Below, piece after piece: positions 18,984-52,000 of a DNA stretch of 64,000 bases. The notes beneath the pieces are model-generated. The model was not told the DNA's origin and searched no databases. It saw only the letters and a program-made list of their open reading frames with translations. The DNA is from Deltaproteobacteria bacterium (GTDB lineage: Bacteria > Myxococcota_A > Polyangia > GCA-2747355 > JADLHG01). Each line of letters opens with the position of its first letter. The stretch's first letter is position 1. Position numbers and translations under genes: made by a program. The DNA is taken from positions 8,230 through 72,229 of the forward strand of contig JADLHG010000020.1 in assembly GCA_020848905.1 (NCBI GenBank). Reading direction: 5' to 3'.

Positions 18984-19502
18984 CTACTTCTTCGCGCAGC
19001 GGTAGAGCTCGGTGAACTTGTCGGTGCAGACCTCGACCGTCTCCGGAACCTTATCCATGTCGGGCTTGCCGTCCTTGAACCAGCTACAGGCCTGCGTGGG
19101 ACAGTCGACGACCGCGGACATGGCCTCCGGCGCGTCGTAGCAACCGTTGTTGTTCTTGTCGCGGAGCGTGACGGTGCAGGTCGCGGCCTCGGTGGTCGTC
19201 GGATACGAAAAGCTCTTCGTCACCTTCGGGGTGCCGATGCCGAGCCAGCCGAGCCAGGCGAACGGGTTGAAGCCCTGCGCGCTGCGCTCGCCGAGGACGC
19301 CGCCCTTCGCGACGTACGAGCGGCAGAGCTGGGCCGCCTCATCCGCTTCGACACTCGGGTCCGCGGTACGAACCTGCGAGGCGCAGCTCTCGATGCTGCC
19401 CGGATTCGGGTCTCCGACCTCGCTCCCGCACGCCGCGAGGGCCGGGAGGAGGCACGCGAACGTCGCGAGACGAACCCAACGCAAGGACGGCTTGGACGAC
19501 AT
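18984..19502 (-). CDS. small lipoprotein, tandem paralogue 2
   Basis: ORF 18984..19502. Lipobox PALAAC|G. The N-terminal half is near-identical to 18448..18957; the C-terminal half has diverged. Confidence 0.7.
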   Translation of the reverse strand: MSSKPSLRWVRLATFACLLPALAACGSEVGDPNPGSIESCASQVRTADPSVEADEAAQLCRSYVAKGGVLGERSAQGFNPFAWLGWLGIGTPKVTKSFSYPTTTEAATCTVTLRDKNNNGCYDAPEAMSAVVDCPTQACSWFKDGKPDMDKVPETVEVCTDKFTELYRCAKK

Positions 19503-22149: not shown

Positions 22150-24375
22150 CTACCGGCACTCGTAGCGGTAGTAGGTCTGACCCTCGGGGCTCGTGAGGTC
22201 GATGGGGCAGCAGCGCTGGCTCGGGTCGCAGACGCGGAATTTCATCGAGGGTCCGTAGTAGTGCAGGTCGCAGATGCTCGCCTCGCTCGGGTGGCGGCAG
22301 GCTCCTTCGTAGCAGTACTCGCCGCGGCGGCAGAGTCGGCCGCAGGCCCCGCAGTGGATGGGGCCCTGCGTCGGGCCGCCCGTGCCGACCTTGAGATCCA
22401 CGCAGGCCTTGACGCAGGCGTTCCCGTGCCAGCTCGGGAAGGGGCAGAGCGTCTCGTTCGACTTGCACGGTGTGTACGGCTCGAGGTTCGCCTTGCAGGT
22501 GGCCTCCCGGCCCGGCGCACAGCACGAGCCCCCGATGCAGCTCCAGGTACCCGTGGGCGAGAGCGCCGTGCAGTCCGAGGCGCCCGACGGCGGCGGAATC
22601 CACCAGGCCGGCGGATGCGCTTCCGCCCAGTAGCGCGCGCACGCTTTCGCGTCCGAACAGAAGCTCGCGTCCCCCGTGTAGAACGGCTTGCAGGTGCCGT
22701 CGCTGTCGCAGTACTCGCCGAGCGTGCAGGCGTGGCCGCAGCTCCCGCAGTAGATGGTCTGCGCCTGGTCGTCCGGGTTGGTGTTCGGCTTCTTCGGCTT
22801 CAGCTCGAGGCAGCGCCCAGAGCAGCAGGTGAAGCCCTCCGTGCACGAGGGCGAGCAGGCGACGGTCGGGCACTCCTTCGGTGCGCTGCAGGTGTCGCAG
22901 CGCGCGCTGCAGCTCGCGCCGGCCGCGCAGCCGTTCGGGCTCGCGGTGGGGTCGCAGCGTTCACCGGGGCTCGCCTTGCCATCCCCGCAGCAGACGCACT
23001 CGCCTGGCCGCTGGCTTTGCGTGGGGCGATCCGAGACCCGCCGTCCGAAGGTCAGGTCCGCGGCGGCCGCGCTCGTCCCGTCACGTTCCACGAACGGGCT
23101 TTCCTTCGTGCCGGCCGCCCACGCCGCGGCGAGTGCCGCTCCGAGGTCCGGCTTCGCGCCCGTGACGGAGAAGTTCTTGAGCAGGTAGTGCGTGGCGGGG
23201 CAGGCGGGGAGCGCCAGGCTGGCCTCGCTGGCCTCGTCGCTCGACGCGGAGGTGAAGACGCGCTCCACCCCGGGCACCGCGGCGAGGGCGATCTGAAAGC
23301 CGCCGCTGAAGCAGGCCTCGAGGACGACGGTGATGTGGCAGGCCTTGAGCTGCTTGAGCGCGTCCGCGAGCTCGGCCTCGGAGATGAAGCGCTTGCCGAG
23401 CCGGACGTCCCAGCTCAGCGCTTCGCCCGGTCGCGCTGCGGCGACGAGCTGCCCATTGTCGTAGACCTGACCGTCCTCGCCGTAGAAGAGAAAATCATCG
23501 ACGCCGGCGGCGTTCTTGCGCGTCACCCGTCGCGCGCCGTGGGCGTTCACGAAGACCACCACCTCGTCGCAGCACTCGACCTGCGAGGCGAGGCCCGCGA
23601 GCGCCTGCAGGAAGGTGTCTCCCGCGCCGGGGTCCTTCGCGCCCCAGGCTCCGAGGAGCACGTCGAAGCCGAGCGCGCTCAGGGTGACCCACATCGCGTG
23701 CCCCGTGGCGAGGAGCAGGTCCTCGCCCGTGCCGTTGCCGGTGCCGATCACGCCGTAGCGGCGCGGCGCGCGGCCCGAGGCGCAGGTGACGTGCCGCTGC
23801 GAGGTGCGTAGCAGCACGTCCTTGGGCGGCTCGACGGTCGGCGGCGGGACGACTCGCCCACGGTAGGTGCTGTAGACCGTGAGGGCCTCGCTCGCGAGCT
23901 CGCCGAGGCGGGTCGGAAAGGCCGCGCGCCCGTCGAGGAGCGGCCAGTTCGAGGCGTGCCGGACGCTGACCGCCCCCGAGCTCTCGGAGACCAGCACGTG
24001 CCGCAGCGGGTGCTCGAGCAGCCGATGCGGCGCGTCGTCGATGACGAAGAGAAAGGAGGCCTCGCCGAGCGTCAGGCTATCCCGCCGCCCGTCCACGCCC
24101 AGGCGCGCGCCGGCCGCCGCCACCTGCGGCAGGGCGTAGACGATCACGTCGTGGTCGAGCGTCTTCCAGCCCAGCACCTCGTCGAGCACGCGCCGCTGCA
24201 CGGCGCTGAGCCCGGCCCGCGGTTCGGGCGCGGAACCGGAGGGTGGAGGGCTCTCGCTCGGGCTCTTGCAGGCGCCGCTGACGCCGACGGCCACGGCGCA
24301 GACCAGCAGGCCGAGCCAGGCGGCGGCGCGGCGGCGGGCAGGTTCGAAGCCCTCTTCTCGTTCGCGGCTCGGCAT
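22150..24375 (-). CDS. lipoprotein with clan-CD (legumain C13 / caspase-like) cysteine peptidase core and ~280-aa Cys-rich C-terminal region
   Basis: ORF 22150..24375. Lipobox GVSGAC|K. VVVFVNAHGARR (His-Gly, about codon 279) and ITVVLEACFSGGF (Cys, about codon 355) resemble the legumain/caspase catalytic dyad context. The C-terminal part (23001..22150) has repeated CGSCGHACTLGEYCDSDGTC / CGACGRLCRRGEYCYEGAC modules. Confidence 0.65.
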   Translation of the reverse strand: MPSREREEGFEPARRRAAAWLGLLVCAVAVGVSGACKSPSESPPPSGSAPEPRAGLSAVQRRVLDEVLGWKTLDHDVIVYALPQVAAAGARLGVDGRRDSLTLGEASFLFVIDDAPHRLLEHPLRHVLVSESSGAVSVRHASNWPLLDGRAAFPTRLGELASEALTVYSTYRGRVVPPPTVEPPKDVLLRTSQRHVTCASGRAPRRYGVIGTGNGTGEDLLLATGHAMWVTLSALGFDVLLGAWGAKDPGAGDTFLQALAGLASQVECCDEVVVFVNAHGARRVTRKNAAGVDDFLFYGEDGQVYDNGQLVAAARPGEALSWDVRLGKRFISEAELADALKQLKACHITVVLEACFSGGFQIALAAVPGVERVFTSASSDEASEASLALPACPATHYLLKNFSVTGAKPDLGAALAAAWAAGTKESPFVERDGTSAAAADLTFGRRVSDRPTQSQRPGECVCCGDGKASPGERCDPTASPNGCAAGASCSARCDTCSAPKECPTVACSPSCTEGFTCCSGRCLELKPKKPNTNPDDQAQTIYCGSCGHACTLGEYCDSDGTCKPFYTGDASFCSDAKACARYWAEAHPPAWWIPPPSGASDCTALSPTGTWSCIGGSCCAPGREATCKANLEPYTPCKSNETLCPFPSWHGNACVKACVDLKVGTGGPTQGPIHCGACGRLCRRGEYCYEGACRHPSEASICDLHYYGPSMKFRVCDPSQRCCPIDLTSPEGQTYYRYECR

Positions 24376-24989: not shown

Positions 24990-26915
24990 CTAGAAGGTAC
25001 CGGTTACCCCCACCATCCCGCCCCCCGGTGCGGGGCCGAAGGCCAGGTTCAGGTTGAGGTCCGGGTCCTCGCGGTAGAGACGCAGCATGCGTTCCATGGG
25101 GGTCTCCATGTAGCGCAGCGAGACGCCGAGGCCGAAGAGGAGCGCGCTCATGGCTCCGCCCATGACGTAGATCGCGGCGGGGAGGTTGGTGCTCGACAAG
25201 CGGGCGTCCACGATGCCGATCGCCACGGTGGCACCGAGGAGCAGGCCCCCCTCGACGAAGGCCAGCGCGGAGACGAGGCGCCGGCGGCGGGCCTCGCGTT
25301 CGGCGAGCTCGAGGAGGTGCGCTTCGGTGCGGGCCACGACGGACTCGAAGCTCGCCCCGGGGCGTCGGAGCTCGTCTTCGAAGGCGGCGTAGGCCTTCTC
25401 CCCCTCCGAGCGCGCGAAGAGCCGCAGGAGGCCGGTGGCCGCGAGGGCGCCGCCCCCGCCGAGGAGCACGATCGCGGAGATCTTGGTCGTCTGGTCGAGC
25501 TCGCCGCTCTTCATGCCGAGGATCACGCCCCCCGAGGCGGCCACGACCAGGCCCCCGAGGGCGCTCGTGCCGGCGAGGGTCAGCCGGTCGGCGCGGTCGG
25601 CGCGGGCGAGCGCCGCCAGGTAGTGCCGCATGCGCACCTCGTCGCGCCAGGAGATGCCGAAGACCTCTTCGGCCGCCGGGTGCCGTCGTTCGCGCGCGTA
25701 GGCTTCGGGGCCGAAGGGCTCGGCGAAGAACTCCTCGTAGAGCGCGTCGTCCCCGCGGGCGAGGAGTGGCGTCGGGCGCGGGGTGAGCATCACCGAGGCG
25801 GTCGAGGTGGGCAGGCGGATCTCGCGCAGCGTGGGGCGCCCCCCTTTGCCGCGGGCCGCGACGAGCTCTTGCACGATGGCGCCCTCGGTCACGGGCATGG
25901 GCAAGACCAGCGTCAGCTCGCGCCCCCGCTCCTTGTGGACGTCGAGGAGGCGCGTCCCCTGGAGGTCCCGCACCCAGACCCGCTGCGCCGGCGGGCCGAG
26001 CACGAGCTTGCGCCCCACCGCGCGGTCCACGGCGAACAGCGAGGCGCCTCCGTTCTGGTAGGGCCCGCGTGCGAAGACCTTGGGGCGGAAGTGCTCGTTC
26101 TTGATGCGGCGATTCGCTATCGCCACGAAGGCCGCGAGCTCGTCGTACGAGACGCGCCCGTCGCCGTTCGCGTCCGCGGCGCCGGAGAGGCCCGAGCGCA
26201 CCTCGTGGCTGAAGATCCCCGACTGCAGCTCCGACCATTCGTAGACCTCGCCGGCCGCGCTCGTGGAGAGGAAGACCCCGACCTGCGGAAAGCGCTCCAC
26301 GAAGCCGAGCTTCAGGTCCTTCGGGGTGGCCCAGCGGCGGCCGCCGGCCTTGCGCGGGCTGATCACGAAGAAGGAGTTGCAGCTGTCGAGGATCAGGTGC
26401 GCGCGGTGGGCGGGGACCTTTCCCAGCACCTCCCGCTCCAGCTCCTCGGGCCCGAGCCGGCCGTCCTCGAGCTCGAGGTAGCCCTTGCCGCGGTCCACTT
26501 GCCCGTGGCCGGCGAAGACGAAGTAGAAGACCGTGTGCAGTCCCTTTGCACGGGCCGCGCGCACCGCGTCGGCGAGCTCGCGCACGGCCTGACGCAGCTC
26601 GGCGCGCCGAGGGGCCCGCGCGGTGGCCCCGAGCCCCGGATAGAGCGCGGCCGTGGGACGATCGAAGCGCGTGAGCAGGCGCAGGTGCCCGGGTTCGGTG
26701 ATGGTGCGGAAGACCTGCACGTAGCGCGCCCCGTCGTCGTCGGCGTACTGCAGGTTCGGTCGGTGCGGCAGGAGGCTCCGGTTGTTCGTCACCACGAGCG
26801 TGAAGCCGACCTCGGAGGCGGCTTCGACGGGCGACACACTGGCGAGGAGCAGGGCGGCCAGACCCGCCAGCACACCGAACGGTCTGGAACCCGTCGCGAG
26901 CCGACGCCTCCTCAT
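24990..26915 (-). CDS. exported caspase-family (peptidase C14-like) protein with Ca-binding-type loop and four C-terminal TM helices
   Basis: ATG at 26915 in ORF 24990..27422. Signal MRRRRLATGSRPFGVLAGLAALLLASVSPVEA|AS. Catalytic contexts YFVFAGHGQ (His137) and HLILDSCNS (Cys179). ADANGDGRVSYDELAAFV loop. Four hydrophobic helices near the C-terminus (for example LGGLVVAASGGVILGM and AIVLLGGGGALAATGLLRLF). The start overlaps the anti-sigma stop (ATGA). Confidence 0.75.
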   Translation of the reverse strand: MRRRRLATGSRPFGVLAGLAALLLASVSPVEAASEVGFTLVVTNNRSLLPHRPNLQYADDDGARYVQVFRTITEPGHLRLLTRFDRPTAALYPGLGATARAPRRAELRQAVRELADAVRAARAKGLHTVFYFVFAGHGQVDRGKGYLELEDGRLGPEELEREVLGKVPAHRAHLILDSCNSFFVISPRKAGGRRWATPKDLKLGFVERFPQVGVFLSTSAAGEVYEWSELQSGIFSHEVRSGLSGAADANGDGRVSYDELAAFVAIANRRIKNEHFRPKVFARGPYQNGGASLFAVDRAVGRKLVLGPPAQRVWVRDLQGTRLLDVHKERGRELTLVLPMPVTEGAIVQELVAARGKGGRPTLREIRLPTSTASVMLTPRPTPLLARGDDALYEEFFAEPFGPEAYARERRHPAAEEVFGISWRDEVRMRHYLAALARADRADRLTLAGTSALGGLVVAASGGVILGMKSGELDQTTKISAIVLLGGGGALAATGLLRLFARSEGEKAYAAFEDELRRPGASFESVVARTEAHLLELAEREARRRRLVSALAFVEGGLLLGATVAIGIVDARLSSTNLPAAIYVMGGAMSALLFGLGVSLRYMETPMERMLRLYREDPDLNLNLAFGPAPGGGMVGVTGTF

Positions 26916-27745
26916 CGCGCACCTCGCAGCGTCAGGGACCACTCCTGCACGTGCGCCTCGGGAAAGAGCCGCGCGAGCGAGGGGGCCTTCCCGGCGTCGC
27001 GCAGGAGCGCCTCCACCTGCTTCACCGAGCGGCGCTGCCGCGAGACGACCGAGACGGCGCGCAGGAGGCCGGGCTTCGCGTCGGGGGCGAAGACCTCGTG
27101 GAGCATCACGCGGCGCCCCCGCGGCAGGTCGAGCGCGAGCGGAGCCTTCGCCGGGTCGTCCCAGCGGGGGGCCGCCCAGTGCACCTCTCCCCCGGCCTCG
27201 ACGACGAAGACCAGCAGATAGAGCGGCGTGGGGGTGAGCCGGCTCACCTCGACCGCGAGACCCTCGTCGGCCGCGAGCAGATCGTGCGCGTTCAGGCGCC
27301 GGGGAGCGCCGTGCCGCTTTGCCGCGTAGAGCTCGACCCCCGTCAGCTCCTTCAGGCTCTCGGCCGTCGGACCGCCGCCGCGGGCCTGAAAGGTCTCCGC
27401 GCGACCGCCGGTGTGGCGCCACAGATAGACGCAGAGCGGAACGGTCACCGCGAGCACCGTGGCCGCGAGCGCGTAGGGGAGCCAGGAGGCGCGCGACGTC
27501 GCGGTGGGCGAGGGGTCGAGCCGGGCCATCGTGCGCGCCACGAAGGCCGCGGTGTCGGGCGAGGCGTCAGACGACACGCCTGGGGCCGGCGAGGCGATGG
27601 CCGCGAGCGTGACCTCGAGCCGAGAGGCGCGCGACCGGCACTCGCCGCATTCACCGAGGTGCGCCTCGAGGGCGCGAGCGCGCGCCACGGCCACCTGCTC
27701 CTCGCGCAGCGCAAGCAACTCGTCGTCGCTGGGGCAGCTCGTCAT
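26912..27745 (-). CDS. anti-sigma factor (zf-HC2 type), single-pass membrane protein
   Basis: ATG at 27745 in ORF 26912..28852. The N-terminus MTSCPSDDELLALREEQ...HLGECGECRSR has the H-x3-C-x2-C zinc motif. TM segment WLPYALAATVLAVTVPLCVYLW. Extracytoplasmic domain of ~170 aa. The start overlaps the sigma-factor stop (ATGA). Confidence 0.7.
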   Translation of the reverse strand: MTSCPSDDELLALREEQVAVARARALEAHLGECGECRSRASRLEVTLAAIASPAPGVSSDASPDTAAFVARTMARLDPSPTATSRASWLPYALAATVLAVTVPLCVYLWRHTGGRAETFQARGGGPTAESLKELTGVELYAAKRHGAPRRLNAHDLLAADEGLAVEVSRLTPTPLYLLVFVVEAGGEVHWAAPRWDDPAKAPLALDLPRGRRVMLHEVFAPDAKPGLLRAVSVVSRQRRSVKQVEALLRDAGKAPSLARLFPEAHVQEWSLTLRGAR

Positions 27746-28338
27746 GCGGAAACCTCCAGTCGGGCGCGTAGCGCGCGCAGACCCAAAAAGACGCGGGAGC
27801 GCACGGTGGCCTCGGGCGCGTCGACGATCGCTCCCACCTCGGCGTACGAGAGCCCTTCGCCGAAGCGCAGCAGCACGGCCTCGCGTAGCTTGGGGGAGAG
27901 ACCCCGGAGCTCGCGGTGCACACGTTCCGTGCGTTCGCGCCGGAGGAGCGCGTCGAGCTGCTCGGCGCGGTGCGACGGCTCGTTTGCCGCCGGGGCGTCC
28001 TGGAGCACGCGCTCGCGGCGAAAGAACCCGCGACGCGCGTTGCGGCAGACGTTGCGCACGATGGTGAAGAGGTACACGGCAAACTGCCCGTCCGGCCGAT
28101 AGCGCGCCCGGGCCTGCCAGAGCCGCAGAAACGCCTCCTGGGCCAGGTCCTCGCTGCGCGCGCCGTCCCACTTGGCGCAGAAGCTCCGCACCCGTCGCTC
28201 GTGTCGCGCGACGAGCGCGGCGAAGGCCTCGCGCAACCCGGCCGCCGCGAGCTCCATCAGCTCGTCGTCGGAGCGTGCCGCGAGCCCGCCCGGTTCGGGG
28301 CGCGGAAACGGCAGCACCTTGGGCTCGAAGCCGGGCAT
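27742..28338 (-). CDS. ECF (sigma-70 family, group 4) RNA polymerase sigma factor
   Basis: ORF 27742..28338. Region 2 (DLAQEAFLRLWQARARYRPDGQFAVYLFTIVRNVCRN) and region 4 (LSPKLREAVLLRFGEGLSYAEVGAIVDAPEATVRSRVFLGLRALR) are both recognisable. Confidence 0.9.
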   Translation of the reverse strand: MPGFEPKVLPFPRPEPGGLAARSDDELMELAAAGLREAFAALVARHERRVRSFCAKWDGARSEDLAQEAFLRLWQARARYRPDGQFAVYLFTIVRNVCRNARRGFFRRERVLQDAPAANEPSHRAEQLDALLRRERTERVHRELRGLSPKLREAVLLRFGEGLSYAEVGAIVDAPEATVRSRVFLGLRALRARLEVSA

Positions 28339-28611: not shown

Positions 28612-30285
28612 ATGCCCCGACGGTACAGACTGTTCGTACGTCTCTCCGTGGCCCTCGCGCTGCTTCTGGCGGCCGCGGTGGGTCTCGAGCGACCCAGCGC
28701 CGCCGCGGGGCCAGGCGCGCTCGCGCGACGGTTCTTCGCGGGGCTCGCCAAAGGGCGGGTGAAAGGCTCGCGCGAGCCCGGCCTCGTGCTCGCGGCCAGC
28801 CCCAGCCAGCCGGTCGTGACGTCGCTCTTCGCCGTCGCGCGCAAGGTCGCACGTGGCGGGGCGCTCCATCCGGTCGGGATCGAGCCTTTCTCGAACGACG
28901 AGCTCAGCCTGCGCGTCCCGGCCGCTGTCCAGGGACGATCGATCGTGGTGGCGCAGCCCGCGGAGGCGCGCGAGCCCTCGACGGCGCTCTTCCGCACCCT
29001 GCTCGCGGTGGCGGCGAGCCAGAGCAACCTCGCCTCCTCGGTCCACGTGGTCCTCGATCGCGGCCTCGCGAAGCGCTTCGACCCGGCCTTCGTGGCCACG
29101 CTCTTCTCCGCGCTACACGCGGACTCGCTGCGCTACGCCGATGCGCACGGCGGCCCGCTCGAGCGACTTCTGCGCCCGCTCCGCGGTTCCGCCCTGGCCC
29201 AACGCTTGGGCGTCGACGGACCCCTCGTTCCTCGGCCGGTGCACCTGCCCCGCGAGGGACGCCGTTCCAAGCGCTCGGGCAGCGCCGCTCCGCCGCTGCT
29301 CTGGAGCGGTCACGGCTACCCCGAGCTGGCGCGGGGCGTGGGCGAGGCGATGGGGCTCGCGCCGCGCTTTCTGCCGACGGAGAAGGCCTTCCAGGGCCGC
29401 CAGATCCTCCCCGAGGACCCGGCCGGCCGACGCGTCTATCTCCTGCAGACCAAGCGCCTCGGCGATCCCGAGGCCCTGCACCGGGACCTCTTCGAGGTGC
29501 TCTACGCCGCCTGGCAGGCCAAGCAGCGCGGGGCCGCCGAGGTCACTCTCGTCATGCCCTATCTGCCCTACTCGCGCTCCGATCGCATGGATACCGCCGG
29601 CACCACCGTGGGCGCCGCGGTGCTACCGCAGCTCGCGCGCGCCGTCGGCGTGGACCGCGTGGCCTTCTACTCGGTGCATCAACCCCAAGAGGTCGGCTTC
29701 TTCCTCGGGCAGAAGATCCAGGTGCTGCACGCCTCGGGGGAGGCGGTCCTCGCCCCGGCGGTGGCGCGCCATCTGAAGGCCAAGCTCACGCCGAAGGAGC
29801 TCGCCAAGCACGTACGGGTGCTCGCGCCGGATCCGGGGGCACGCAAGCGCGCGCTGGTCTTCGCGCGCCTGCTCGCCGCCGAGCTCGGCCTGCCGGAGGT
29901 CAAGGTCGTCGTGGCCGAGAAGGAGCGGCACGGCCGCGACGTGAAGACCCGCTTCACCGCGAACGTGCGCAAGGCGGTGCTCGTAGCTATCGACGACGAG
30001 ACGGCGAGCGGCAAGACCCTCGCGCAGCTCGTCGAGCCGGCGCTCGCGAAGGGTGCGACCTCGATGCTCGCCGCGGTGAGCCACCTCACGGGGCCGGCCT
30101 ACCGCCTGCTCGACAGCTCGCGGCTCGAGCGGCTCTTCGCCCTCGACACCGTGCCGCAGCCGCGCGAGCACCACGACAACGCCAAGATCGAGATCGTGAG
30201 CGTGGCCCAGGCCGTGGGCCGGCTGCTCACCACCCTGGATGGGAGAGGGGACCTCTCGAAACAGCTCTTCTGGGAGCACGAATAA
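28612..30285 (+). CDS. ribose-phosphate pyrophosphokinase (PRPP synthetase)-like protein with signal peptide and an extra degenerate N-domain
   Basis: ATG at 28612 in ORF 28588..30285. Signal MPRRYRLFVRLSVALALLLAAAVGLERPSAAA|G. The C-terminal ~310 aa are Prs-like (VTLVMPYLPYSRSDR, VLAPDPGARKRA, LVAIDDETASGKTL). They are preceded by a degenerate copy of the Prs N-domain (VGIEPFSNDELSLRVPAAVQGRSIVVAQP...LFRTLLAVAASQS). Confidence 0.7.
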   Translation: MPRRYRLFVRLSVALALLLAAAVGLERPSAAAGPGALARRFFAGLAKGRVKGSREPGLVLAASPSQPVVTSLFAVARKVARGGALHPVGIEPFSNDELSLRVPAAVQGRSIVVAQPAEAREPSTALFRTLLAVAASQSNLASSVHVVLDRGLAKRFDPAFVATLFSALHADSLRYADAHGGPLERLLRPLRGSALAQRLGVDGPLVPRPVHLPREGRRSKRSGSAAPPLLWSGHGYPELARGVGEAMGLAPRFLPTEKAFQGRQILPEDPAGRRVYLLQTKRLGDPEALHRDLFEVLYAAWQAKQRGAAEVTLVMPYLPYSRSDRMDTAGTTVGAAVLPQLARAVGVDRVAFYSVHQPQEVGFFLGQKIQVLHASGEAVLAPAVARHLKAKLTPKELAKHVRVLAPDPGARKRALVFARLLAAELGLPEVKVVVAEKERHGRDVKTRFTANVRKAVLVAIDDETASGKTLAQLVEPALAKGATSMLAAVSHLTGPAYRLLDSSRLERLFALDTVPQPREHHDNAKIEIVSVAQAVGRLLTTLDGRGDLSKQLFWEHE

Positions 30286-30311
30286 GGACGGGATCGAGGG
30301 AAAGGGAAAGG

Positions 30312-31349
30312 ATGAGGGAGATGAGACGCACGCGCTGCACCACTTCGATCGTCGCCGGGTTGCTCGCCGCGACGCTCTTCGCCGCACTGCCCGCCGGCGC
30401 GACCAAGCGCACGGGCAAGCAACCCACCGACCGTATCCTTCTGCCGCGCGTGAGCTCGGAGCGGGCGGTGCGCGAGATCGGCCAGGCGATCGTGCGCAAG
30501 GTCCTCGCCATGGGCAAATCGGGGGTGGTCCTCGGGCTCTCGGGTGGCTCGGACTCCACCGTGGTCGCCGGCATCACCAAGCGCGCCTTCGACGCCTACA
30601 ACCGGCAGAACCCGGACAAGCCGCAGCTCGAGGTGGTGGGGATGATCCTCCCCTCGAAGACCAATACGGCGCAGGACACCGCGGACGGCGTCCTCGTGGC
30701 CAAGACGCTGGGCATCCGCTACGAGGTGGCGAGCATCGAGCCGCTCGTGCGCGCCTTCAAGAAGGTCAACCGCGCGGCCATGAAGAACTCCTTCACCAAG
30801 GGGAACACCATGTCCGAGCTTCGCGCCGTGGTGCTGCACACCAAGGCGGCCTCGGACACCGACGCGCAGGGACGTAACAAGTTCGTGATCGGGACCGGCA
30901 ACCGCGACGAGGACGTGGAGACGGGCTTCTACACCCTCTTCGGGGACGGGGCCGTGCACTTCAGCCCGATCGGCAACCTCTCCAAGCGGCACGTCTTCCA
31001 GCTCGCGCGGTGGTTCGGCTTCATGGACATCGCGCGCAAGGAGCCCTGGGCGGGCCTCGAGGCGGGGCAGACGGCCTTCAAGGCGCTCGGCTATCACTAC
31101 GCCCTCGCCGAGCTCGTGAACCGCGGCGTAGAGCAGGGCTTCACCGCCGAGGTCCTTGCGCGGCAGCCCCAGGTGCTGCGCCGGGCGGGCAAGGACCTGG
31201 GCGACTACCAGAGGCTCTTTGGCGCGCCGAAGTACGCGACGGTTCGCGAGCTCGTGGACGCCATCATCTGGCGCAAGGAGCATATCGCCAAGCCCAAGGG
31301 CGAGCTCGTTCGCCCCGAGGTGGCCGGCGTCACCCTGACCTATAGGTAG
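30312..31349 (+). CDS. nadE: NH3-dependent NAD+ synthetase with N-terminal signal peptide
   Basis: ATG at 30312 (or 30321) in the frame of ORF 28275..31349. MREMRRTRCTTSIVAGLLAATLFAALPAGA|T. PP-loop VVLGLSGGSDS. FVIGTGNRDEDVETGFYTLFGDGAVHFSPIGNLSKRHV is NadE-like. Confidence 0.8.
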   Translation: MREMRRTRCTTSIVAGLLAATLFAALPAGATKRTGKQPTDRILLPRVSSERAVREIGQAIVRKVLAMGKSGVVLGLSGGSDSTVVAGITKRAFDAYNRQNPDKPQLEVVGMILPSKTNTAQDTADGVLVAKTLGIRYEVASIEPLVRAFKKVNRAAMKNSFTKGNTMSELRAVVLHTKAASDTDAQGRNKFVIGTGNRDEDVETGFYTLFGDGAVHFSPIGNLSKRHVFQLARWFGFMDIARKEPWAGLEAGQTAFKALGYHYALAELVNRGVEQGFTAEVLARQPQVLRRAGKDLGDYQRLFGAPKYATVRELVDAIIWRKEHIAKPKGELVRPEVAGVTLTYR

Positions 31350-31358
31350 GATCGGACC

Positions 31359-32231
31359 GTGCGGCTCAGGCGTCTCACCCTCCTCGTCGCGCTGCTCCTT
31401 TGCAGCGGCTCGCCCGCCTGGGCCAAGCTCCCGGCGGGGGCCGACGCGACGGTGCTCGTCGAGGGGGACCCGCGTACGCGCTTTCGGGTGGCGGGCCTCG
31501 ACCTCGCCTCCGGGCTGAAGCCCGGCACGCGCATCGCCCTGCTCGGGGCCTCCGTAGATCCCATCTCGCTCGCGCATCTGGTCCTCGCCGCGCTGCCGCT
31601 CGTCGATCCGGCGGTGCGCGCCCAGCTCGGCGTGGACCAGGTCTGGATCGTTCCCTCGCCGCCGCGACCGGACAAGGCCCAGCGCGTGCCGAACGGCCGG
31701 CGCTTCGCCTGGACGCGGCTCGCCGCGCGCTACCTGCGCAAGAAAGGCCTTCCGGTCTACGCCACCGACGTGGAGCTGAGGCTCGCGAAAGGCGGCTTTC
31801 GTGGCACCTATCAGCTCCTGAAGGCCCTCGAGCGGCGCTTCCCCGGGGTCGAGCTGAGCGTGATCGTGGGCGAGGACGTCTGGAACGACCTGCCCACGAG
31901 CAAGTGGCGCAACGGCCTCGGTGTGGTGCGCGAGCATTCGCTCTTCGTGGCCCTGCGGGGCGATCACGCGGACCCGAAGAAGGCCAAGGCGCGCGTGGTG
32001 AAGGAGGCGCTCGAGCGGCAGGCCCGGCAGGTGATCCTGCTCCCCGACGCCCAGGAACCGGGTCTGCGCGAGCGACTGACCCGGCTCCTGCCGCGGGGCT
32101 TCGACCTCAAGCTGCTGCCGACCCTCAGCAGCACTGCCCTGCGTGAGGCCTTCGCCCGTGGGGAGCGCTCGCCCGTCGGCGTGCTCCCCGCCGTGGCGAG
32201 AGCCATCCTGCGCGCTGGCTCCTACCGCTAG
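31359..32231 (+). CDS. nadD: nicotinate-nucleotide adenylyltransferase-like protein with N-terminal signal peptide
   Basis: ORF 31359..32231 with a GTG start 9 nt after the nadE stop. MRLRRLTLLVALLLCSGSPAWA|K. IALLGASVDPISLAHL corresponds to GGSFDPxHxGH, with the first His replaced. LSSTALRE corresponds to the ISSTxIR motif. Confidence 0.65.
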   Translation: MRLRRLTLLVALLLCSGSPAWAKLPAGADATVLVEGDPRTRFRVAGLDLASGLKPGTRIALLGASVDPISLAHLVLAALPLVDPAVRAQLGVDQVWIVPSPPRPDKAQRVPNGRRFAWTRLAARYLRKKGLPVYATDVELRLAKGGFRGTYQLLKALERRFPGVELSVIVGEDVWNDLPTSKWRNGLGVVREHSLFVALRGDHADPKKAKARVVKEALERQARQVILLPDAQEPGLRERLTRLLPRGFDLKLLPTLSSTALREAFARGERSPVGVLPAVARAILRAGSYR

Positions 32232-32364
32232 TCTGGCCAGGGCGAGGGCCGCCCGGCACCGGCCCATCTGCTGGAAATCCATGGGCCCGAGGCCGCGCCG
32301 GAGCGGCACGGATCCTGCTGTCTATCGTGGGCAGCATCCGAACCGTGTCCTCGGGAGAAGGCCC

Positions 32365-33225
32365 ATGAAGGCTGCTCTGACCTCTGCATCGCTCTGGCTG
32401 GCCGCGCTCGCCGCGCTGCTGCCGTCGCCCGCCGTCGCGGCGCGCGAGCCGAAGCAGGGCTCGAACCGGGGCAAGCAGAGCTCGGTGGTCTCCATGCTCG
32501 GCGGCCGCTGTCCGACGAAGAACGGCGTCGTCGCGCTGCGCGAGCCGAAGCGCCACGGGAAGCGCGCGCTCCTCATCGTCGATCCCCAGAATGCCTTCAT
32601 GCCCGGGGGCGCCCTCGCCGTGAAGCACGGGGACCGCATCGTCCCGGTGGCGAACCGCCTGATGGGGCTCTTCGACCTGGTGGTGGTCTCGCTCGACTGG
32701 CACCCGGCGAACCACGGCAGCTTCGTCACCCAGCACCCCGGCAAGCAGGTCTTCGACGTGATCGATCTGCACGGCATCCAGCAGGTCCTCTGGCCCAAGC
32801 ACGCCCCGCGCGGTCGCAAAGGGTCGGACATCCACCCCGGGCTCGACCGGAAGCGCATCACGCACCTCGTGCTCAAGGGCAACGACAAGCGCGTGGACAG
32901 CTACAGCGCCTTCTACGACAACGGCCGGCGGAGCTCGACCGGGCTCGCCGCGTACCTGCGCTCGAAGGGGATCGAGGAGCTCTACGTGATGGGGCTCGCC
33001 ACCGACTACTGCGTGAAGTTCACCGTGCTCGACGCGGTGAAGGAAGGGTTCACCACGCACGTGATCAAGGCCGGCTGCCGCGGTGTGAATGCGCGGCGGG
33101 GCGACAGTGGGCGCGCGGTGAAGGCCATGAAGAAGGCCGGCGCGAAGATCCTCGGTGATGCGGCGCTCGAGGCCCTCCTCGGCGGCGCTCCGCAGGCCGC
33201 CCGAGGGAAGCGAGGTCAGCCGTGA
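32365..33225 (+). CDS. pncA: nicotinamidase (isochorismatase family) with N-terminal signal peptide and linker
   Basis: ATG at 32365 in ORF 32143..33225. MKAALTSASLWLAALAALLPSPAVAA|R. Catalytic and metal motifs ALLIVDPQNAF, SLDWHPANHGSF and MGLATDYCVKFT. Confidence 0.8.
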   Translation: MKAALTSASLWLAALAALLPSPAVAAREPKQGSNRGKQSSVVSMLGGRCPTKNGVVALREPKRHGKRALLIVDPQNAFMPGGALAVKHGDRIVPVANRLMGLFDLVVVSLDWHPANHGSFVTQHPGKQVFDVIDLHGIQQVLWPKHAPRGRKGSDIHPGLDRKRITHLVLKGNDKRVDSYSAFYDNGRRSSTGLAAYLRSKGIEELYVMGLATDYCVKFTVLDAVKEGFTTHVIKAGCRGVNARRGDSGRAVKAMKKAGAKILGDAALEALLGGAPQAARGKRGQP

Positions 33226-34841
33226 AGCGTACCGTTCGAAGCTCCCGCTTCTCCGTGCTCCTGGCCGCGCTCGCGCTCGTGCTCGCGCCCCTCGCTCCGG
33301 CGCAGGCGGCGCCCAAGCCCACGAACCCGACCACCGTGGGCCTCTACAAGAAGGGGGCGCTCGGGCTGCTCACCGACATGTACCAGCTCACCATGGGCTT
33401 CGGCTTCTGGAAGACGGGGCACGCCGACGACGAGGTGGTCTTCAACCTCTATTTCCGCAAGAACCCTTTCAAGGGGGGCTACGCCGTCGCCGCGGGTCTC
33501 GATACGGCGATCGATCTGGTGAAGAACTTCCGCATCACCGACAAGAACGTGGCCTACCTCTCCACGCTCAAGGGGAACGACGGCCGCCCGCTCTTCGACC
33601 GCGGCTACCTCCAGACCCTGCGCACCATGCGCTTCAACTGCGACATCGACGCTGTCCCCGAGGGGACGGTGGTCTTCCCGAACGAGCCGCTCCTGCGCAT
33701 CCGGGGCCCGCTCCTGCAGGTGCAGCTCCTCGAGACCGTGCTGCTCAACATCCTCAACTTCCAGACGCTGATCGCCACCAAGGCCTCGCGCGTCGTGCAG
33801 TCCGCCAAGGGGGACCCGGTCCTCGACTTCGGCCTGCGGCGCGCGCAGGGCTTCGACGGGTCGCTCTCCGCCTCGCGCGCCTGCTACCTCGCGGGCGCGG
33901 CCGGCACCTCGAACGTCGCCGCCGGCGAGCTCTTCGGCATCCCCGTCAAGGGCACGCACGCGCACAGCTGGGTCATGTTCCATCCGACCGAGGTGGAGGC
34001 CTTCGAGAACTACTCCCGCGTGATGCCCAATAACTCGGTCTTCCTGGTCGACACCTACGACACGCTGAACGGGGTGAAGAACGCGATCACCGTGGCCAAG
34101 CGCCTGCGCAAGCGCGGGCACGAGGCCCTCGGCATTCGCCTCGATTCGGGAGACCTCGCGAAGCTGAGCAAGAAGAGCCGCACCATGCTGGACGAGGCGG
34201 GCTTCCCGCAGGCCTTCGTCTCGGCCTCGAACGACCTCGACGAGCATGAGATCGCCGCGCTCAAGAAGCGCGGGGCGAAGGTCAACGTCTGGGGTGTGGG
34301 CACGAAGATGATCACCGCCTTCGACCAGCCCGCGCTCGGCGGCGTCTACAAGCTCGCCGCCGTGCGCCGCCCCGACGGCACCTGGGAGCGCAAGATCAAG
34401 CTCTCCGAGACGCCCGAGAAGACCTCCACCCCCGGCATCCTGCAGGTGCGCCGCTTCATGAAGGACGGCAAGTTCCTCGGCGACATGATCTGGGACCTCC
34501 TGAGCCCGCCCAAGGACCAGGGCCGGATGGTGAGCTACGCCGATGCGAGCCGCGTGACCCGCTTTGCCGGCGCCACGCACCAGGACCTGCTCGTCCCCGT
34601 CTTCCGGCGGGGCAAGAACGCCGCGCGCTTCGTGATGCGGCAGCTCCCGCTCGAGCAGGAGCGCGCCTACTGCCGCACGCAGCTCGAGGCGCTCCGCCCC
34701 GGGGTGAAGCGCCTGACCAAGCCGACCCCGTACAAGGTGGGCATGGAGCTCGGCCTGAATCAGGTGCGGCAGGAGCTCATGGCCAACGCGCGGTCCACGC
34801 AGGGTGCGAGCAGCCCGCGCACGCCGCGTCGCGTGAAGTAG
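33222..34841 (+). CDS. pncB: nicotinate phosphoribosyltransferase with N-terminal signal peptide
   Basis: ORF 33222..34841. The GTG start overlaps the pncA stop (GTGA). MKRTVRSSRFSVLLAALALVLAPLAPAQA|A. LLTDMYQLTMGFGFW and VKGTHAHSWVM are NAPRTase hallmarks. Confidence 0.85.
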   Translation: MKRTVRSSRFSVLLAALALVLAPLAPAQAAPKPTNPTTVGLYKKGALGLLTDMYQLTMGFGFWKTGHADDEVVFNLYFRKNPFKGGYAVAAGLDTAIDLVKNFRITDKNVAYLSTLKGNDGRPLFDRGYLQTLRTMRFNCDIDAVPEGTVVFPNEPLLRIRGPLLQVQLLETVLLNILNFQTLIATKASRVVQSAKGDPVLDFGLRRAQGFDGSLSASRACYLAGAAGTSNVAAGELFGIPVKGTHAHSWVMFHPTEVEAFENYSRVMPNNSVFLVDTYDTLNGVKNAITVAKRLRKRGHEALGIRLDSGDLAKLSKKSRTMLDEAGFPQAFVSASNDLDEHEIAALKKRGAKVNVWGVGTKMITAFDQPALGGVYKLAAVRRPDGTWERKIKLSETPEKTSTPGILQVRRFMKDGKFLGDMIWDLLSPPKDQGRMVSYADASRVTRFAGATHQDLLVPVFRRGKNAARFVMRQLPLEQERAYCRTQLEALRPGVKRLTKPTPYKVGMELGLNQVRQELMANARSTQGASSPRTPRRVK

Positions 34842-34842
34842 T

Positions 34843-37665
34843 CTACGGCCCGCAGGTGAGCAGGAACGGCCTCTGCGCGCCGCCCATCGTTCCCATGCCG
34901 ACGATGTGCCCTTTCTTGTTGATGGCGAGGGCACGGACGAGGGACCAGCCCGCGCCGGCGGGGAGCAGGCCGTTGAGGTCTTCGAGCTTTCCGTCCTTCC
35001 AGCGTACGGCCCGCTTCACCGATTCTCCGACGATCACCCCCGCGTCGTTGACGCCGTGGGCAATGCTGATGTCACCGCCGGGGAGCACCGTCATGCCGCC
35101 GCCCGACCAAGAGGCTGCACGTCCCTCCCCGGAGAAGTTGCTCACGACGCCCACGACGAGCCCTGACGCGTTGATGCCGTTGGCGCTGCTGAGCCTCCAG
35201 TCTCCAGATCCCGCACCCAGATCCTGAACCCCTCCGCCGCTGAAGAGGCACGCGTGCGCGTCGGGGCCGACACCGGGCGCCGCCGGCAGATTGGCCTGTC
35301 CCACCACCTGATCCGCCTCGTTCAGCGCGTGGCCCTGGCTGTTGTCGCTGAGCGTGCCCAGGTCCGTGACGCTGCCGCCGGTCCAGAGAACGGCGTGCGA
35401 GAAGCCCGTGCTCAGCGCGGCCCGGCCGGCTACATGGCCCGCTTGGTTGATGGCGTAGGCCACGGCCACGTTTCCGCCGAGCGTCCCGAGGTCCTGCATC
35501 GCCCCGTTGTGCCATATGAACGCGCGCTGCGTTCCGCTGCTCGACGTCGACGTACCCACCACGTCCTTGGCGTCGTTGATGCCTAGGGCTCGGCTGGTCG
35601 ATCCACCGAGGGTGCCCAGGTCCCGCATCGTGCCGTTGTCCCAGAGGAAGGCGTGCTCGTTACTCCCGCTGCTCGCGTAGCACCAGCCGGCGACCTGTCC
35701 GGTGTTGTTGAGCGCCTGGGCGGTGCAATCCCCGCCGAGCGTGCCCAGGTCCTTGATCACGCACGAGGAGCCCTTGCCGAGCTCGAGCGCCAGGTTGTCG
35801 AAGGGCAGGAGCCGCGTCATGACGAAGGCCGAGAAGTCGCTCGTCTGCCCGACGTCGGTCGCGGTGAACGGGAGGGCGAAGCTCGTCTGCCCCGCCGTGG
35901 CGGTCGCGCGGCCCGCCTCGACGAAGGAGGAGGTGCCGACCTTGCGCACCAGGATGATGTCCTTCACGTTGTAAGGCCCCACCGTGGGCGGAAACGTGAC
36001 CGTCGCGGGGTCGAGCTCGACGGTGAAGGTGACCTTGTCTCCGGCGACGAAGCTGCCCCGATCGGCGGTCAGCGTGCCCTTGGGAGACTCCGCGAGCGGC
36101 CTCGACGACTGGAGCTCGAGGATCGTGATGTCCGTGATGCCGAACTGGCCGAGCATCTTGGGCAGGTCCACGCCCACGCTCCCCTTGCTCACCAGGGACA
36201 GTTTGTAGGACGACGCGTAGGCGGGGTCCGCGAGCTGGTCGCCCCACGGCGCGAAGCTGCCCTCGAGCGTCGGCCCGTAGCGCAGGGAGAACGGGGTAAG
36301 GCGCAGCCGCTTGAAGATCGGGTTGCCGAGGCCGACCTTGGCCAGACCGAACACGGCGAAGCTGGCATCTACCCGCAGGTCGTTGGTCGTGGGTTTCTTC
36401 CAGACCGGCTCGGCGCTGGCGCTCGCCGTCAGGCTGCGTACGAACTCGCAGTTGGTTCCTTTCGGACAGGCGACGCCGAGCTCCGCCTGCGCCTTGGCCT
36501 CCGCCTTGGCGCCCACGACCAGGTTCGTCAGCGCCACCTTGCCGCCGAGCTCGACGCCGACGCTGAGGGGGATCACCACGGACACCACCCAGGAGAGCGC
36601 CCCCGCGATGGGAATGCGGAGCTCGAAGAACTCCCGCGTGCACGACACGGTGCCCTGAAAGCCGAGCGCCACGGTGAGGCTGCCGTCCAAGGTCGCGCCG
36701 AGGTCTCCCTTGGCGACCAGCCGTTCGAGGCCCACGCCGGAGGTGTAGACGAAGTCGAGGCTGAGGTTGCGGTTGATGCTGACCGCGGGGGCCGTGCCGA
36801 GCGTGACCGGCCACTGGCTCACCCCCGTGGCGTCGAGCTCGCACTCGTCGAAGGGCGGCATCTTGAAGGAGAGCTTCGTGGCCTGCCGCTCGCCGGTCGC
36901 CCCGCTCGAGGCGGCGTCCGCCTTGGGCCGAGGCTTGAAGCGGATCGTGGACCCCTCGCGCGTGATCTCGTAGGCGTCCTTGAGGTCCGAGGCGATCTCG
37001 GGCTCGACGGTCGAGAGGTCGAAGACCTCCTTGATGCTCAGGTGAGGCAGGAGCTCCTTGACGGGCACGACCGCGAGCGTGACTCGCACCTGGTCGCCGT
37101 CCCGCTGCGCGGAGACGACCTTGCCGCCGACGGGCTTGGCCTCGAGACCGATCACCAGAGTGCCCGGCGGCGGCGCGTCCACGCCGGCGAGTACGACCTC
37201 GTAGGTGGCGCCGGTCACGGGTGCGGCGCTGGGGTCGATCGCCCTCGGGTCCCCGACGAGCTGGGCGTCCGTCACCGCGAGCGCGCCCGGGGGCAACGCC
37301 GTGACGGCCACCAGGAGCGGCGGGGAGGTCACGCCCTGGGCCTCGGCGACGAGCTGACTCGCGCCGTTCTGCACCTGGGCCGTGATCATTCCCTGCCCGT
37401 CGACGGCGATGCTGGCCGGTGTGGTCGAGCGCCACGAGATGGGCGGCGCGGCCACAACGCGACCTTCGGCGTCGTACGCGTTCACCGCGAGCTGTCGCTT
37501 CGCCCCCGCGGCCGTGAGGAGCAGCCCCTTAGGGACGATCTCGAGGCGCGCGACCGGACCCGCGGGTCCCGTCGAAGCGTCCTTGCAGCCGACGAGCCCG
37601 GCGACAAGCCCGAGCGAAGACAGGTTGACTACGACCCACCACTGCCACGTCCCCCGGATGCGCAT
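34843..37665 (-). CDS. large lipoprotein with Big_2-like Ig domain and C-terminal HAF-family extracellular repeats
   Basis: ORF 34843..37665. Lipobox LVAGLVGC|K. LEIVPKGLLLTAAGAKRQLAVNAYDAEG is Big_2-like. The C-terminal repeats are HAFLWDNGTMRDLGTLGG, RAFIWHNGAMQDLGTLGG and HAVLWTGGSVTDLGTL. Confidence 0.75.
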   Translation of the reverse strand: MRIRGTWQWWVVVNLSSLGLVAGLVGCKDASTGPAGPVARLEIVPKGLLLTAAGAKRQLAVNAYDAEGRVVAAPPISWRSTTPASIAVDGQGMITAQVQNGASQLVAEAQGVTSPPLLVAVTALPPGALAVTDAQLVGDPRAIDPSAAPVTGATYEVVLAGVDAPPPGTLVIGLEAKPVGGKVVSAQRDGDQVRVTLAVVPVKELLPHLSIKEVFDLSTVEPEIASDLKDAYEITREGSTIRFKPRPKADAASSGATGERQATKLSFKMPPFDECELDATGVSQWPVTLGTAPAVSINRNLSLDFVYTSGVGLERLVAKGDLGATLDGSLTVALGFQGTVSCTREFFELRIPIAGALSWVVSVVIPLSVGVELGGKVALTNLVVGAKAEAKAQAELGVACPKGTNCEFVRSLTASASAEPVWKKPTTNDLRVDASFAVFGLAKVGLGNPIFKRLRLTPFSLRYGPTLEGSFAPWGDQLADPAYASSYKLSLVSKGSVGVDLPKMLGQFGITDITILELQSSRPLAESPKGTLTADRGSFVAGDKVTFTVELDPATVTFPPTVGPYNVKDIILVRKVGTSSFVEAGRATATAGQTSFALPFTATDVGQTSDFSAFVMTRLLPFDNLALELGKGSSCVIKDLGTLGGDCTAQALNNTGQVAGWCYASSGSNEHAFLWDNGTMRDLGTLGGSTSRALGINDAKDVVGTSTSSSGTQRAFIWHNGAMQDLGTLGGNVAVAYAINQAGHVAGRAALSTGFSHAVLWTGGSVTDLGTLSDNSQGHALNEADQVVGQANLPAAPGVGPDAHACLFSGGGVQDLGAGSGDWRLSSANGINASGLVVGVVSNFSGEGRAASWSGGGMTVLPGGDISIAHGVNDAGVIVGESVKRAVRWKDGKLEDLNGLLPAGAGWSLVRALAINKKGHIVGMGTMGGAQRPFLLTCGP

Positions 37666-51858: not shown

Positions 51859-52000
51859 GCCCACGGGCGTTTGCACGGCACATGCCAGCCGGGTGCGTGG
51901 AATCGGCGTGGAATTGGCGTGGAATTACAGCGGGGAGCGCCAGCGGGGGGTGACAGTTGGCACCACCTGCCGGCCACTCGGCGGTCCAGGCCTCGCGCCC

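Follow-up and report, generated by a model that had tools for sequence, protein, structure and literature searches.

Textbooks describe a Gram-negative periplasm that lacks adenosine triphosphate (ATP) and place cofactor biosynthesis in the cytoplasm. Why, then, would a myxobacterium attach what look like export signals to an entire pathway for making nicotinamide adenine dinucleotide (NAD+)? The question is raised by five genes in a 64,000-nucleotide stretch of DNA (the window) from contig JADLHG010000020.1 of a Deltaproteobacteria bacterium placed within Polyangia. They encode a ribose-phosphate diphosphokinase-like protein (Prs-like), predicted to supply phosphoribosyl pyrophosphate (PRPP), followed by NadE, a NadD-like protein, PncA and PncB, the four enzyme families of Preiss-Handler salvage. 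On balance, we favour the reading that these genes form a self-contained NAD-making operon module exported by the general secretory (Sec) pathway.

A first-pass annotation, made from the DNA letters, had described five consecutive plus-strand genes at 28612-34841, and the same coordinates were recovered here:

28612-30285, plus strand: prs-like gene, 557 amino acids
28612-28710, plus strand: segment encoding the predicted Prs-like signal peptide, MPRRYRLFVRLSVALALLLAAAVGLERPSAAA, with a helix predicted at residues 2-23 (AlphaFold)
30321-31349, plus strand: nadE, 342 amino acids, with an alternative ATG at 30312
31359-32231, plus strand: nadD-like gene, GTG start, 290 amino acids
32365-33225, plus strand: pncA, 286 amino acids
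33222-34841, plus strand: pncB, GTG start, 539 amino acids, its start overlapping the pncA stop (GTGA)

The intergenic gaps of 9 and 133 nucleotides and the four-nucleotide GTGA overlap described in that annotation are present. Its 26-nucleotide gap fits only the ATG at 30312; counting from 30321, where the quoted MRRTRC begins, prs and nadE are 35 nucleotides apart. No plus-strand terminator was found inside the five-gene set, no NAD or other riboswitch in the leader or the 133-nucleotide gap, and no sigma-70-like promoter at the cluster.

Three of the five proteins exceed curated NCBIfam cut-offs for their proposed functions. PncA scores 249 bits against NF008623 (equivalog cut-off 174), which identifies it as a nicotinamidase, and alignment to the Acinetobacter nicotinamidase 2wt9 shows that it keeps the aspartate of VDxQN (VDPQN), the DWHPxxH metal site (DWHPANH) and the cysteine of ATDYC. 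PncB scores 564 bits against NF006695 (equivalog cut-off 469), as expected of a nicotinate phosphoribosyltransferase (NaPRTase), and carries the Pfam domains NAPRTase_N, NAPRTase and NAPRTase_C. An exact look-up of the window PncB sequence gave no match; the copy in a closely related strain differs by a few residues. NadE, at 131.9 bits against TIGR00552 (cut-off 63.65), is assigned as an NH3-dependent NAD+ synthetase. It is a single-domain protein without a glutaminase domain (Pfam), and its SGGSDS PP-loop aligns to PDB 2e18.

The Prs-like protein passes the general ribose-phosphate diphosphokinase model (TIGR01251, 130.7 bits, cut-off 113) but misses species-level equivalog cut-offs (for example NF002844, 88 versus 438 bits), which marks it as a divergent member. 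It comprises a predicted signal peptide (residues 1-33, cleavage AAA↓G), a disordered basic linker (24-53), a degenerate Prs N-domain (about 58-176) and a complete PRPP synthetase (PRPS) core (227-540). Thermus and human PRPS align to this core over its full length. Compared with PRPS of known structure, it keeps PYLPYSRSDR, HQPQEVGFF, APDPGARKRA and DDETASGKT, while its AEKER aligns to Thermus PRPS, and these motif columns are invariant across an alignment of its own family (A1). An AlphaFold2 model (mean predicted local distance difference test score 80.6) matches Thermus, human and E. coli PRPS in Foldseek with target-normalised template-modelling scores of 0.83-0.89. The extra N-domain has a weak Pribosyltran_N match (21 bits), and an internal duplication of the Prs N-domain was not significant by BLASTP (E = 0.15). 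Cellular PRPS models outscore the phage Prs-like family phrog_619 (131 versus 69 bits). The Prs-like protein is identical to MCC6747905.1.

The NadD-like protein belongs to a divergent SPxRxDK subfamily. It misses curated NCBIfam cut-offs (best scores 52 versus 240 and 50 versus 112 bits), has no Pfam CTP_transf_like match, and in a word-based homologue search returned only itself; exhaustive phmmer, however, finds 610 relatives among NadD and nicotinamide mononucleotide adenylyltransferase (NMNAT) proteins. It keeps 13 of 13 invariant columns in an alignment of 25 subfamily members, its motifs GASVDPISLAH and LSSTALR were aligned to NadD of known structure in the PDB, and another relative reads ISNAH at the nucleotidyltransferase motif. 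The first-pass annotation had noticed that the first histidine of HxGH is replaced. This is correct, serine standing there in ISLAH, but the replacement carries less weight than was implied, since this position is H, T, Q or S within the subfamily and both the second histidine and the SSTxxR arginine are kept. The NadD-like protein may plausibly be active.

Whether this pathway is destined for export depends on the N-termini. Those quoted earlier for the five long forms are exact. All five have a positively charged n-region, a hydrophobic core of 10-15 residues and an AxA-type site. The n-region charge ranges from +1 to +4 and is +3 to +4 in four of them. The remaining predicted signal peptides, with the ribosome-binding sequences near their starts, are as follows:

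NadE, residues 1-27: cleavage PAGA↓T, with the Shine-Dalgarno-like sequence GGGAAAGG upstream of the gene start
NadD-like protein, residues 1-22: cleavage AWA↓K
PncA, residues 1-26: cleavage VAA↓R, then a basic linker of about 40 amino acids before the catalytic domain, with the Shine-Dalgarno sequence GGGAGAAGG preceding the ATG at 32365
PncB, residues 1-29: cleavage AQA↓A, with GAGG upstream

Signal peptides were called with a crude rule-based test for n-, h- and c-regions (a positive n-region, an h-region of 7-15 hydrophobic residues, and small residues at -3 and -1). All five operon proteins are positive, compared with 1 of 119 NadE homologues and 0 of 5 cytoplasmic controls from the window. 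Ordinary NadD N-termini defeat the test, their hydrophobic first beta-strand having produced 28 false positives among 149; for NadD relatives, the check was instead whether the GGxFxP motif is preceded by an N-terminal extension of some 35 residues or more.

Several features suggest that the extensions are translated. In a strain that is 98.7% identical, the genes called independently on its ENA contig (L006) have the same long starts, giving 557, 342, 290, 286 and 538 amino acids. The long starts of nadE, nadD, pncA and pncB each have a purine-rich, Shine-Dalgarno-like site upstream; the candidate internal starts have none. The first-pass annotation had proposed judging the extensions by G+C at third codon positions (GC3) and by conservation in orthologues. 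Coding periodicity is present, with a pooled GC3 of 0.87 over codons 2-31 against 0.5-0.7 in the 90 nucleotides in frame upstream for four of the five genes; the upstream value at nadD is also 0.87 because that stretch lies within nadE. Differences between the two strains in the signal regions fall at third positions (pncA codons 3 and 7, nadD codon 24) or are hydrophobic-conservative (PncB R9L, A18V and V20A). Among relatives, extensions occur in most of the Prs-like family and in the nearest NadD-like relative and are missing from the nearest NadE and PncB relatives, a pattern that speaks for the tags as a specific addition.

The long forms fit the anatomy of substrates of Sec and signal peptidase I, by which translocation and cleavage are predicted. 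Paired arginines had earlier made twin-arginine translocation (Tat) of folded enzymes seem conceivable, a suggestion that finds no support in the set. No S/T-RRxFLK-like motif is present, PRRYRLF, MRRTRCT and LRRLTLL lie off the motif, and PncA and PncB have no arginine pair. The h-regions are Leu/Ala-rich and strongly hydrophobic (mean hydropathy 1.9-3.1). Tat was therefore rejected as the general route, and Sec is the most likely one, although the Prs-like protein alone may use Tat, given an arginine in its c-region. Lipoprotein anchoring was also rejected: no [LVI][ASTVI][GAS]C lipobox is present, and the only signal-region cysteine, in the NadD-like protein (LLLC), has leucine at -1.

Cysteine content provides another view of the same question. 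Unpaired cysteines tend to be avoided in proteins that fold in an oxidising extracytoplasmic compartment. Not one cysteine occurs among the 1107 residues that make up the mature Prs-like, NadE and NadD-like proteins (P of about 1e-7 at the window background of 1.46%), compared with medians of 2 in NadE homologues and 3 in NadD homologues. An ordinary Prs (P0011) has nine cysteines; the ten members of the Prs-like family have none beyond the signal peptide. PncB has three, against 5-8 in its relatives. Cysteine depletion is support for the predicted export that is separate from the signal peptides.

Comparison with relatives suggests how such a set could have arisen. The nearest NadE relatives (n = 119; 50-55% identity for the closest) are about 300 amino acids long and lack a signal peptide. 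The 17 nearest PncB genes in GTDB genomes (51-58% identity; Nannocystaceae, Pirellulaceae and Bryobacterales) likewise lack one and start about ten residues before the conserved LLTDLYQ. After predicted cleavage, the lengths of NadE and PncB equal those of full cytoplasmic enzymes, and SGGxDS of NadE then falls at residue 47, where the median for its homologues is 42. Because the closest relatives are untagged and the mature lengths match, the predicted tag and a short linker are best read as appended to complete enzymes that were apparently horizontally acquired. The closest NadE relatives are mostly metagenomic; DPANN archaea (Nanoarchaeota, Woesearchaeota) account for the few with a source name, an indication that NadE was acquired horizontally before its signal peptide was added. 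The nearest relative of the NadD-like protein, P0013 (L026:790-1713; 38% identity), comes from a low-GC organism and has a signal-peptide-like N-terminus followed by an acidic linker of about 45 amino acids. On this N-terminus, P0013 is a second, unrelated lineage with a putatively export-tagged NMNAT. Two signal-peptide-bearing open reading frames (ORFs) flank it, at L026 156-533 (minus strand) and 1931-2398 (plus strand).

The Prs-like protein belongs to a family of ten (35-48% identity), whose other members are annotated as Polyangia or Myxococcales. Like these relatives (P0002-P0010, for example MBK9070037.1), the window protein has a signal peptide and an extra N-domain, and its mature part is free of cysteine. 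The signal peptide is visible in eight of the ten as called; P0007 has an in-frame, signal-like segment upstream of its called start, and P0002, at a contig edge, lacks its N-terminus and is missing from the count. The deposited P0007 call (453 amino acids; L053:8399-9086) appears to be N-terminally truncated, as its ORF is open upstream and encodes LRRLAAALVLFAGSGGLPARALA. A metagenome scan with alignment A1, which contains generic phosphoribosyltransferase motifs, yielded only ordinary Prs at 23-32% identity among the matches listed.

Seven other Prs-like loci were examined, and their neighbours bear signal peptides, but none is an NAD gene. These neighbours include a Ser/Thr kinase, PI3/PI4-kinase-like paralogues, PTP-NADK-type phosphatases, a Trehalose_PPase-type HAD phosphatase, Ppx-GppA, SLOG/LDcluster4 and alpha/beta hydrolases, together with unassigned families of 290-360 amino acids that have no Pfam match. 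Near the Prs-like gene of L053 lies a sigma-70-family gene (301 amino acids, Sigma70_r2/r4_2). The neighbourhoods, on other Polyangia or Myxococcales contigs, are:

L001, 5190-15130: Prs-like neighbourhood
L002, 2084-11542: Prs-like neighbourhood
L003, 3378-16338: Prs-like neighbourhood
L053, 7570-12281: Prs-like neighbourhood
L054, 1037-4539: Prs-like neighbourhood
L055, 5-2007: Prs-like neighbourhood

Almost every protein in them consists of a signal peptide followed by a basic linker rich in Lys, Arg, Ala and Pro. From their gene content, these neighbourhoods look like an uncharacterised exported system of phosphoryl- and nucleotide-handling enzymes.

In the window, the proposed module would work as follows. 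The five genes would be expressed as one operon. Each product would begin as a precursor carrying a cleavable signal peptide of the Sec type (signal peptidase I) and pass through the inner membrane, after which the set would act as a Preiss-Handler module in the periplasm, possibly also in vesicles or the medium. PncA would convert nicotinamide to nicotinate and NH3, and the Prs-like protein would make PRPP from ribose-5-phosphate and ATP. PncB would then combine nicotinate and PRPP into nicotinate mononucleotide (NaMN), which the NadD-like protein would adenylylate to nicotinate adenine dinucleotide (NaAD). The NH3-dependent NadE would complete the route to NAD+ and could take its NH3 from PncA. 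Outside inputs would be limited to nicotinamide, ribose-5-phosphate and ATP, and the likeliest purpose would be the supply or regeneration of NAD+ for an NAD+-consuming extracytoplasmic process. By pathway stoichiometry, an on-board PRPP supplier and an ammonia-dependent NadE receiving one NH3 per PncA turnover would suit a compartment without access to cytoplasmic pools. We infer export, cleavage, enzyme activity, compartment, ATP source and purpose. The idea of a dedicated, export-tagged module of normally cytoplasmic enzymes was already present in the first-pass annotation; it has gained support from the start calls, GC3, Shine-Dalgarno-like sites, tags in most of the Prs-like family, their absence from the closest NadE and PncB relatives, and cysteine content, while its Tat component has found no support.

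A number of observations weigh against this module. Four of its five enzymes (Prs, PncB, NadD and NadE) need ATP, and neither ATP nor PRPP nor ribose-5-phosphate is known to be at hand in the periplasm. The five-gene NAD linkage is seen only in two near-identical strains and at no other Prs-like locus. The signal-peptide calls rest on a crude rule-based test that gives false positives on ordinary NadD N-termini, and the Prs-like start has no Shine-Dalgarno-like site. Basic residues directly follow the predicted cleavage sites of NadE (TKR), PncA (REPK) and the NadD-like protein (K), and such residues reduce Sec export in E. coli; PncA also has no net charge imbalance from N- to C-flank. The ATP motif of the NadD-like protein deviates (GASVDPISLAH), so its activity is not assured. 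Finally, shorter starts in pncB (GTG 33336), pncA (ATG 32494) and nadD (GTG 31452 or 31488) would give enzymes of normal length.

These last codons, with a further in-frame one in nadE (30450), raise the question of whether the signal peptides come from mis-annotation of high-GC DNA, the true starts lying downstream and the enzymes being ordinary cytoplasmic salvage proteins. The short forms fall within the length range of homologues, and ORFs in 71% GC DNA are often open upstream. Yet the Shine-Dalgarno-like sites stand before the long starts and not the short ones, GC3 periodicity runs through the extensions, and the tight nine-nucleotide and overlapping junctions need the long forms. The short form of NadE would lose the conserved RIxLxxM, and the position of its SGGxDS would rank at the 5th percentile among homologues. 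Most members of the Prs-like family carry a signal peptide, five of five such segments arising by chance is implausible beside the single positive NadE homologue, and mis-annotated starts would leave the cysteine depletion unexplained. We regard an artefact as very improbable. A less remote but still rather unlikely explanation is that the hydrophobic segments are uncleaved anchors tethering the five enzymes to the inner membrane as a metabolon, facing the periplasm, or the cytoplasm if the N-termini are outside. The latter orientation would remove the ATP paradox, as ATP and PRPP would be available. The anchor reading would also suit the basic residues right after the hydrophobic segment in NadE, PncA, NadD and Prs-like, and the C-flank of PncA, which is more positive than its N-flank, so that the positive-inside rule favours a cytoplasmic catalytic domain; a hydrophobic segment followed by a basic linker also recurs among Prs-like neighbours elsewhere. 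However, the uninterrupted cores of 10-15 residues are too short for a typical transmembrane helix, and helix breakers and AxA sites end them in all five proteins. The strongly positive n-regions in four of five proteins and the cysteine depletion, which points to an oxidising compartment, also speak against this explanation.

Alternatively, the proteins may be exported as effectors or public enzymes that work where ATP is present, for instance inside prey or host cells that have been lysed or invaded, or in the lumen of a vesicle. They might also yield some other nucleotide product, for example if the Prs-like protein pyrophosphorylates a ribose acceptor other than ribose-5-phosphate. Predatory myxobacteria deliver cargo in vesicles (PMC4158809), a change of acceptor is shown for the PRPS-like fold of phage Adps, which uses adenosine diphosphate ribose (PMC13586617), and at the seven other loci the Prs-like family keeps company with signal-peptide-bearing, non-NAD proteins. 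Set against this, the scores of PncA, PncB and NadE lie above the curated equivalog or equivalog-domain thresholds for the canonical activities, cellular models fit the Prs-like protein better than phage ones, and the five activities match PRPP supply plus Preiss-Handler salvage exactly. Nor was a delivery system or an NAD-consuming partner found in the window. We consider this alternative unlikely, and the Sec-exported NAD module remains the reading that we prefer. A wider proposal, which we advance only tentatively, is that ATP-dependent nucleotide chemistry takes place outside the cytoplasm of Polyangia-type myxobacteria. Under it, the Prs-like family, which elsewhere occurs beside exported-type kinases, phosphatases and hydrolases, would here be joined to tagged PncA, PncB, NadD and NadE, with NAD+ made in the periplasm, vesicles or predation zone.

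The surroundings of the operon are rich in putatively exported proteins. Window GC content is 68-74% throughout. Directly upstream, and divergent from prs as described earlier, lies an overlapping operon for an extracytoplasmic function (ECF) sigma factor:

27742-28338, minus strand: ECF sigma factor (Pfam Sigma70_r2/r4), divergent from prs
26912-27745, minus strand: zinc-finger-type anti-sigma factor with one transmembrane segment
24990-26915, minus strand: caspase-like protein of 641 amino acids, predicted to be exported

By eye, no convincing ECF-type promoter was found upstream of prs. In the 641-residue protein a caspase-like His/Cys dyad can be made out by eye (FAGHG ... DSCNS); the protein also matches EF-hand weakly and has transmembrane segments at its C-terminal end. 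The earlier description of a secretome-dominated region is borne out, since about 20 of the 35 other window genes look signal-peptide-bearing by the crude test, which fits the very large secreted proteomes of Myxococcota (PMC11495043). The rest of the window yielded neither an NAD-consuming enzyme nor a nucleotide transporter, nor any of the usual partners of Prs-like genes.

Downstream, a minus-strand gene at 34843-37665 converges with pncB, the stop codons being 1 nucleotide apart. It encodes a 940-residue, lipoprotein-like protein (LVGC) with no Pfam match and with C-terminal 'HAFLW..G.M.DLGTLGG' repeats that by eye resemble HAF-type extracellular repeats. The C-terminus of PncB and the junction between the two genes are the part that varies most between the two strains. 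Further genes are also of interest:

18448-18957 and 18984-19502, minus strand: tandem paralogous, small lipoprotein-like genes of about 170 amino acids each, about 6% cysteine, with a near-identical central region (GDPNPGSIESCASQVRTADPSV...) and no Pfam match
22150-24375, minus strand: signal-peptide-bearing protein of 741 amino acids with 48 cysteines (6.5%) and no Pfam match
49652-51883, minus strand: two adjacent signal-peptide-bearing paralogues sharing '...YSxDGRAxLNDLYAAYDxxAxxHGWIREV...', with weak Peptidase_M14 / AstE-AspA matches
55303-63975, minus strand, running to the window end: ORF of at least 2890 amino acids with Glycoamylase, GH94 supersandwich and GH94 catalytic domains, an architecture like that of cyclic beta-1,2-glucan synthase
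54151-55269, following that ORF: DAGK_cat-domain kinase
53005-54147, following the kinase: DUF4185 protein

In relation to known systems, the operon resembles bacterial Preiss-Handler salvage with an added PRPP synthetase, using the same four enzyme families and a PRPP supplier. It differs in that all of its enzymes carry predicted signal peptides, its genes are clustered with prs in one operon, its Prs has an extra degenerate N-domain, its NadD has serine for the first histidine, and three of its five mature proteins are cysteine-free. Phage NARP1 (Adps and Namat), NARP2 and NARP3 also rebuild NAD+ from nicotinamide (bioRxiv 10.1101/2024.02.11.579819; PMC13586617; PMC13464706). They share the compact NAD+-rebuilding gene set, and NARP1 likewise pairs a PRPS-like diphosphokinase with a phosphoribosyltransferase-family enzyme, but the phage systems are cytoplasmic two-gene sets without signal peptides, whereas the operon encodes the full route through NaMN and NaAD. 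A NARP1-like reading was rejected, given a canonical NaPRTase in PncB (564 versus 469), a Prs-like protein nearer to cellular PRPS, five genes and a chromosomal myxobacterial context.

The closest analogy for the ATP question is Lig E, an ATP-dependent, signal-peptide-bearing enzyme described as targeted to the periplasm (PMC10799422; bioRxiv 10.64898/2026.03.22.713542). It too is a cytoplasmic-type, ATP-requiring enzyme with a signal peptide, and it poses the same question of ATP source. The likeness is one of analogy only: Lig E acts on DNA as a single enzyme, whereas the operon encodes a cofactor pathway of several steps, and the sequences are unrelated. A literature search, limited in coverage, turned up no description of a set of NAD salvage enzymes with signal peptides, nor of an exported PRPP synthetase; a lead on a Riemerella 'nicotinamidase + signal sequence' proved irrelevant. 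With no precedent in the literature searched, the operon appears to be a new variant, a putatively export-tagged version of a known NAD salvage pathway. The Prs-like family, uncharacterised so far, is otherwise found among exported-type kinases, phosphatases and hydrolases, and is joined to NAD salvage genes only in the window lineage.

A five-enzyme pathway that is export-tagged throughout, ATP-dependent at four steps and marked by signs of adaptation to an oxidising compartment is a direct challenge to the textbook view. It also offers a concrete test system of five short N-termini and five soluble enzymes. If NAD+ is indeed synthesized in the periplasm, vesicles or predation zone, ATP and ribose-5-phosphate would have to be supplied beyond the inner membrane, which would bear on the ATP source of periplasmic Lig E ligases. 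If export is real, an NAD+-consuming process would be expected outside the cell membrane, an extracytoplasmic nucleotide pool would have to exist in predatory myxobacteria, and the operon would be one instance of a wider, uncharacterised family of exported PRPP-synthetase-like enzymes.

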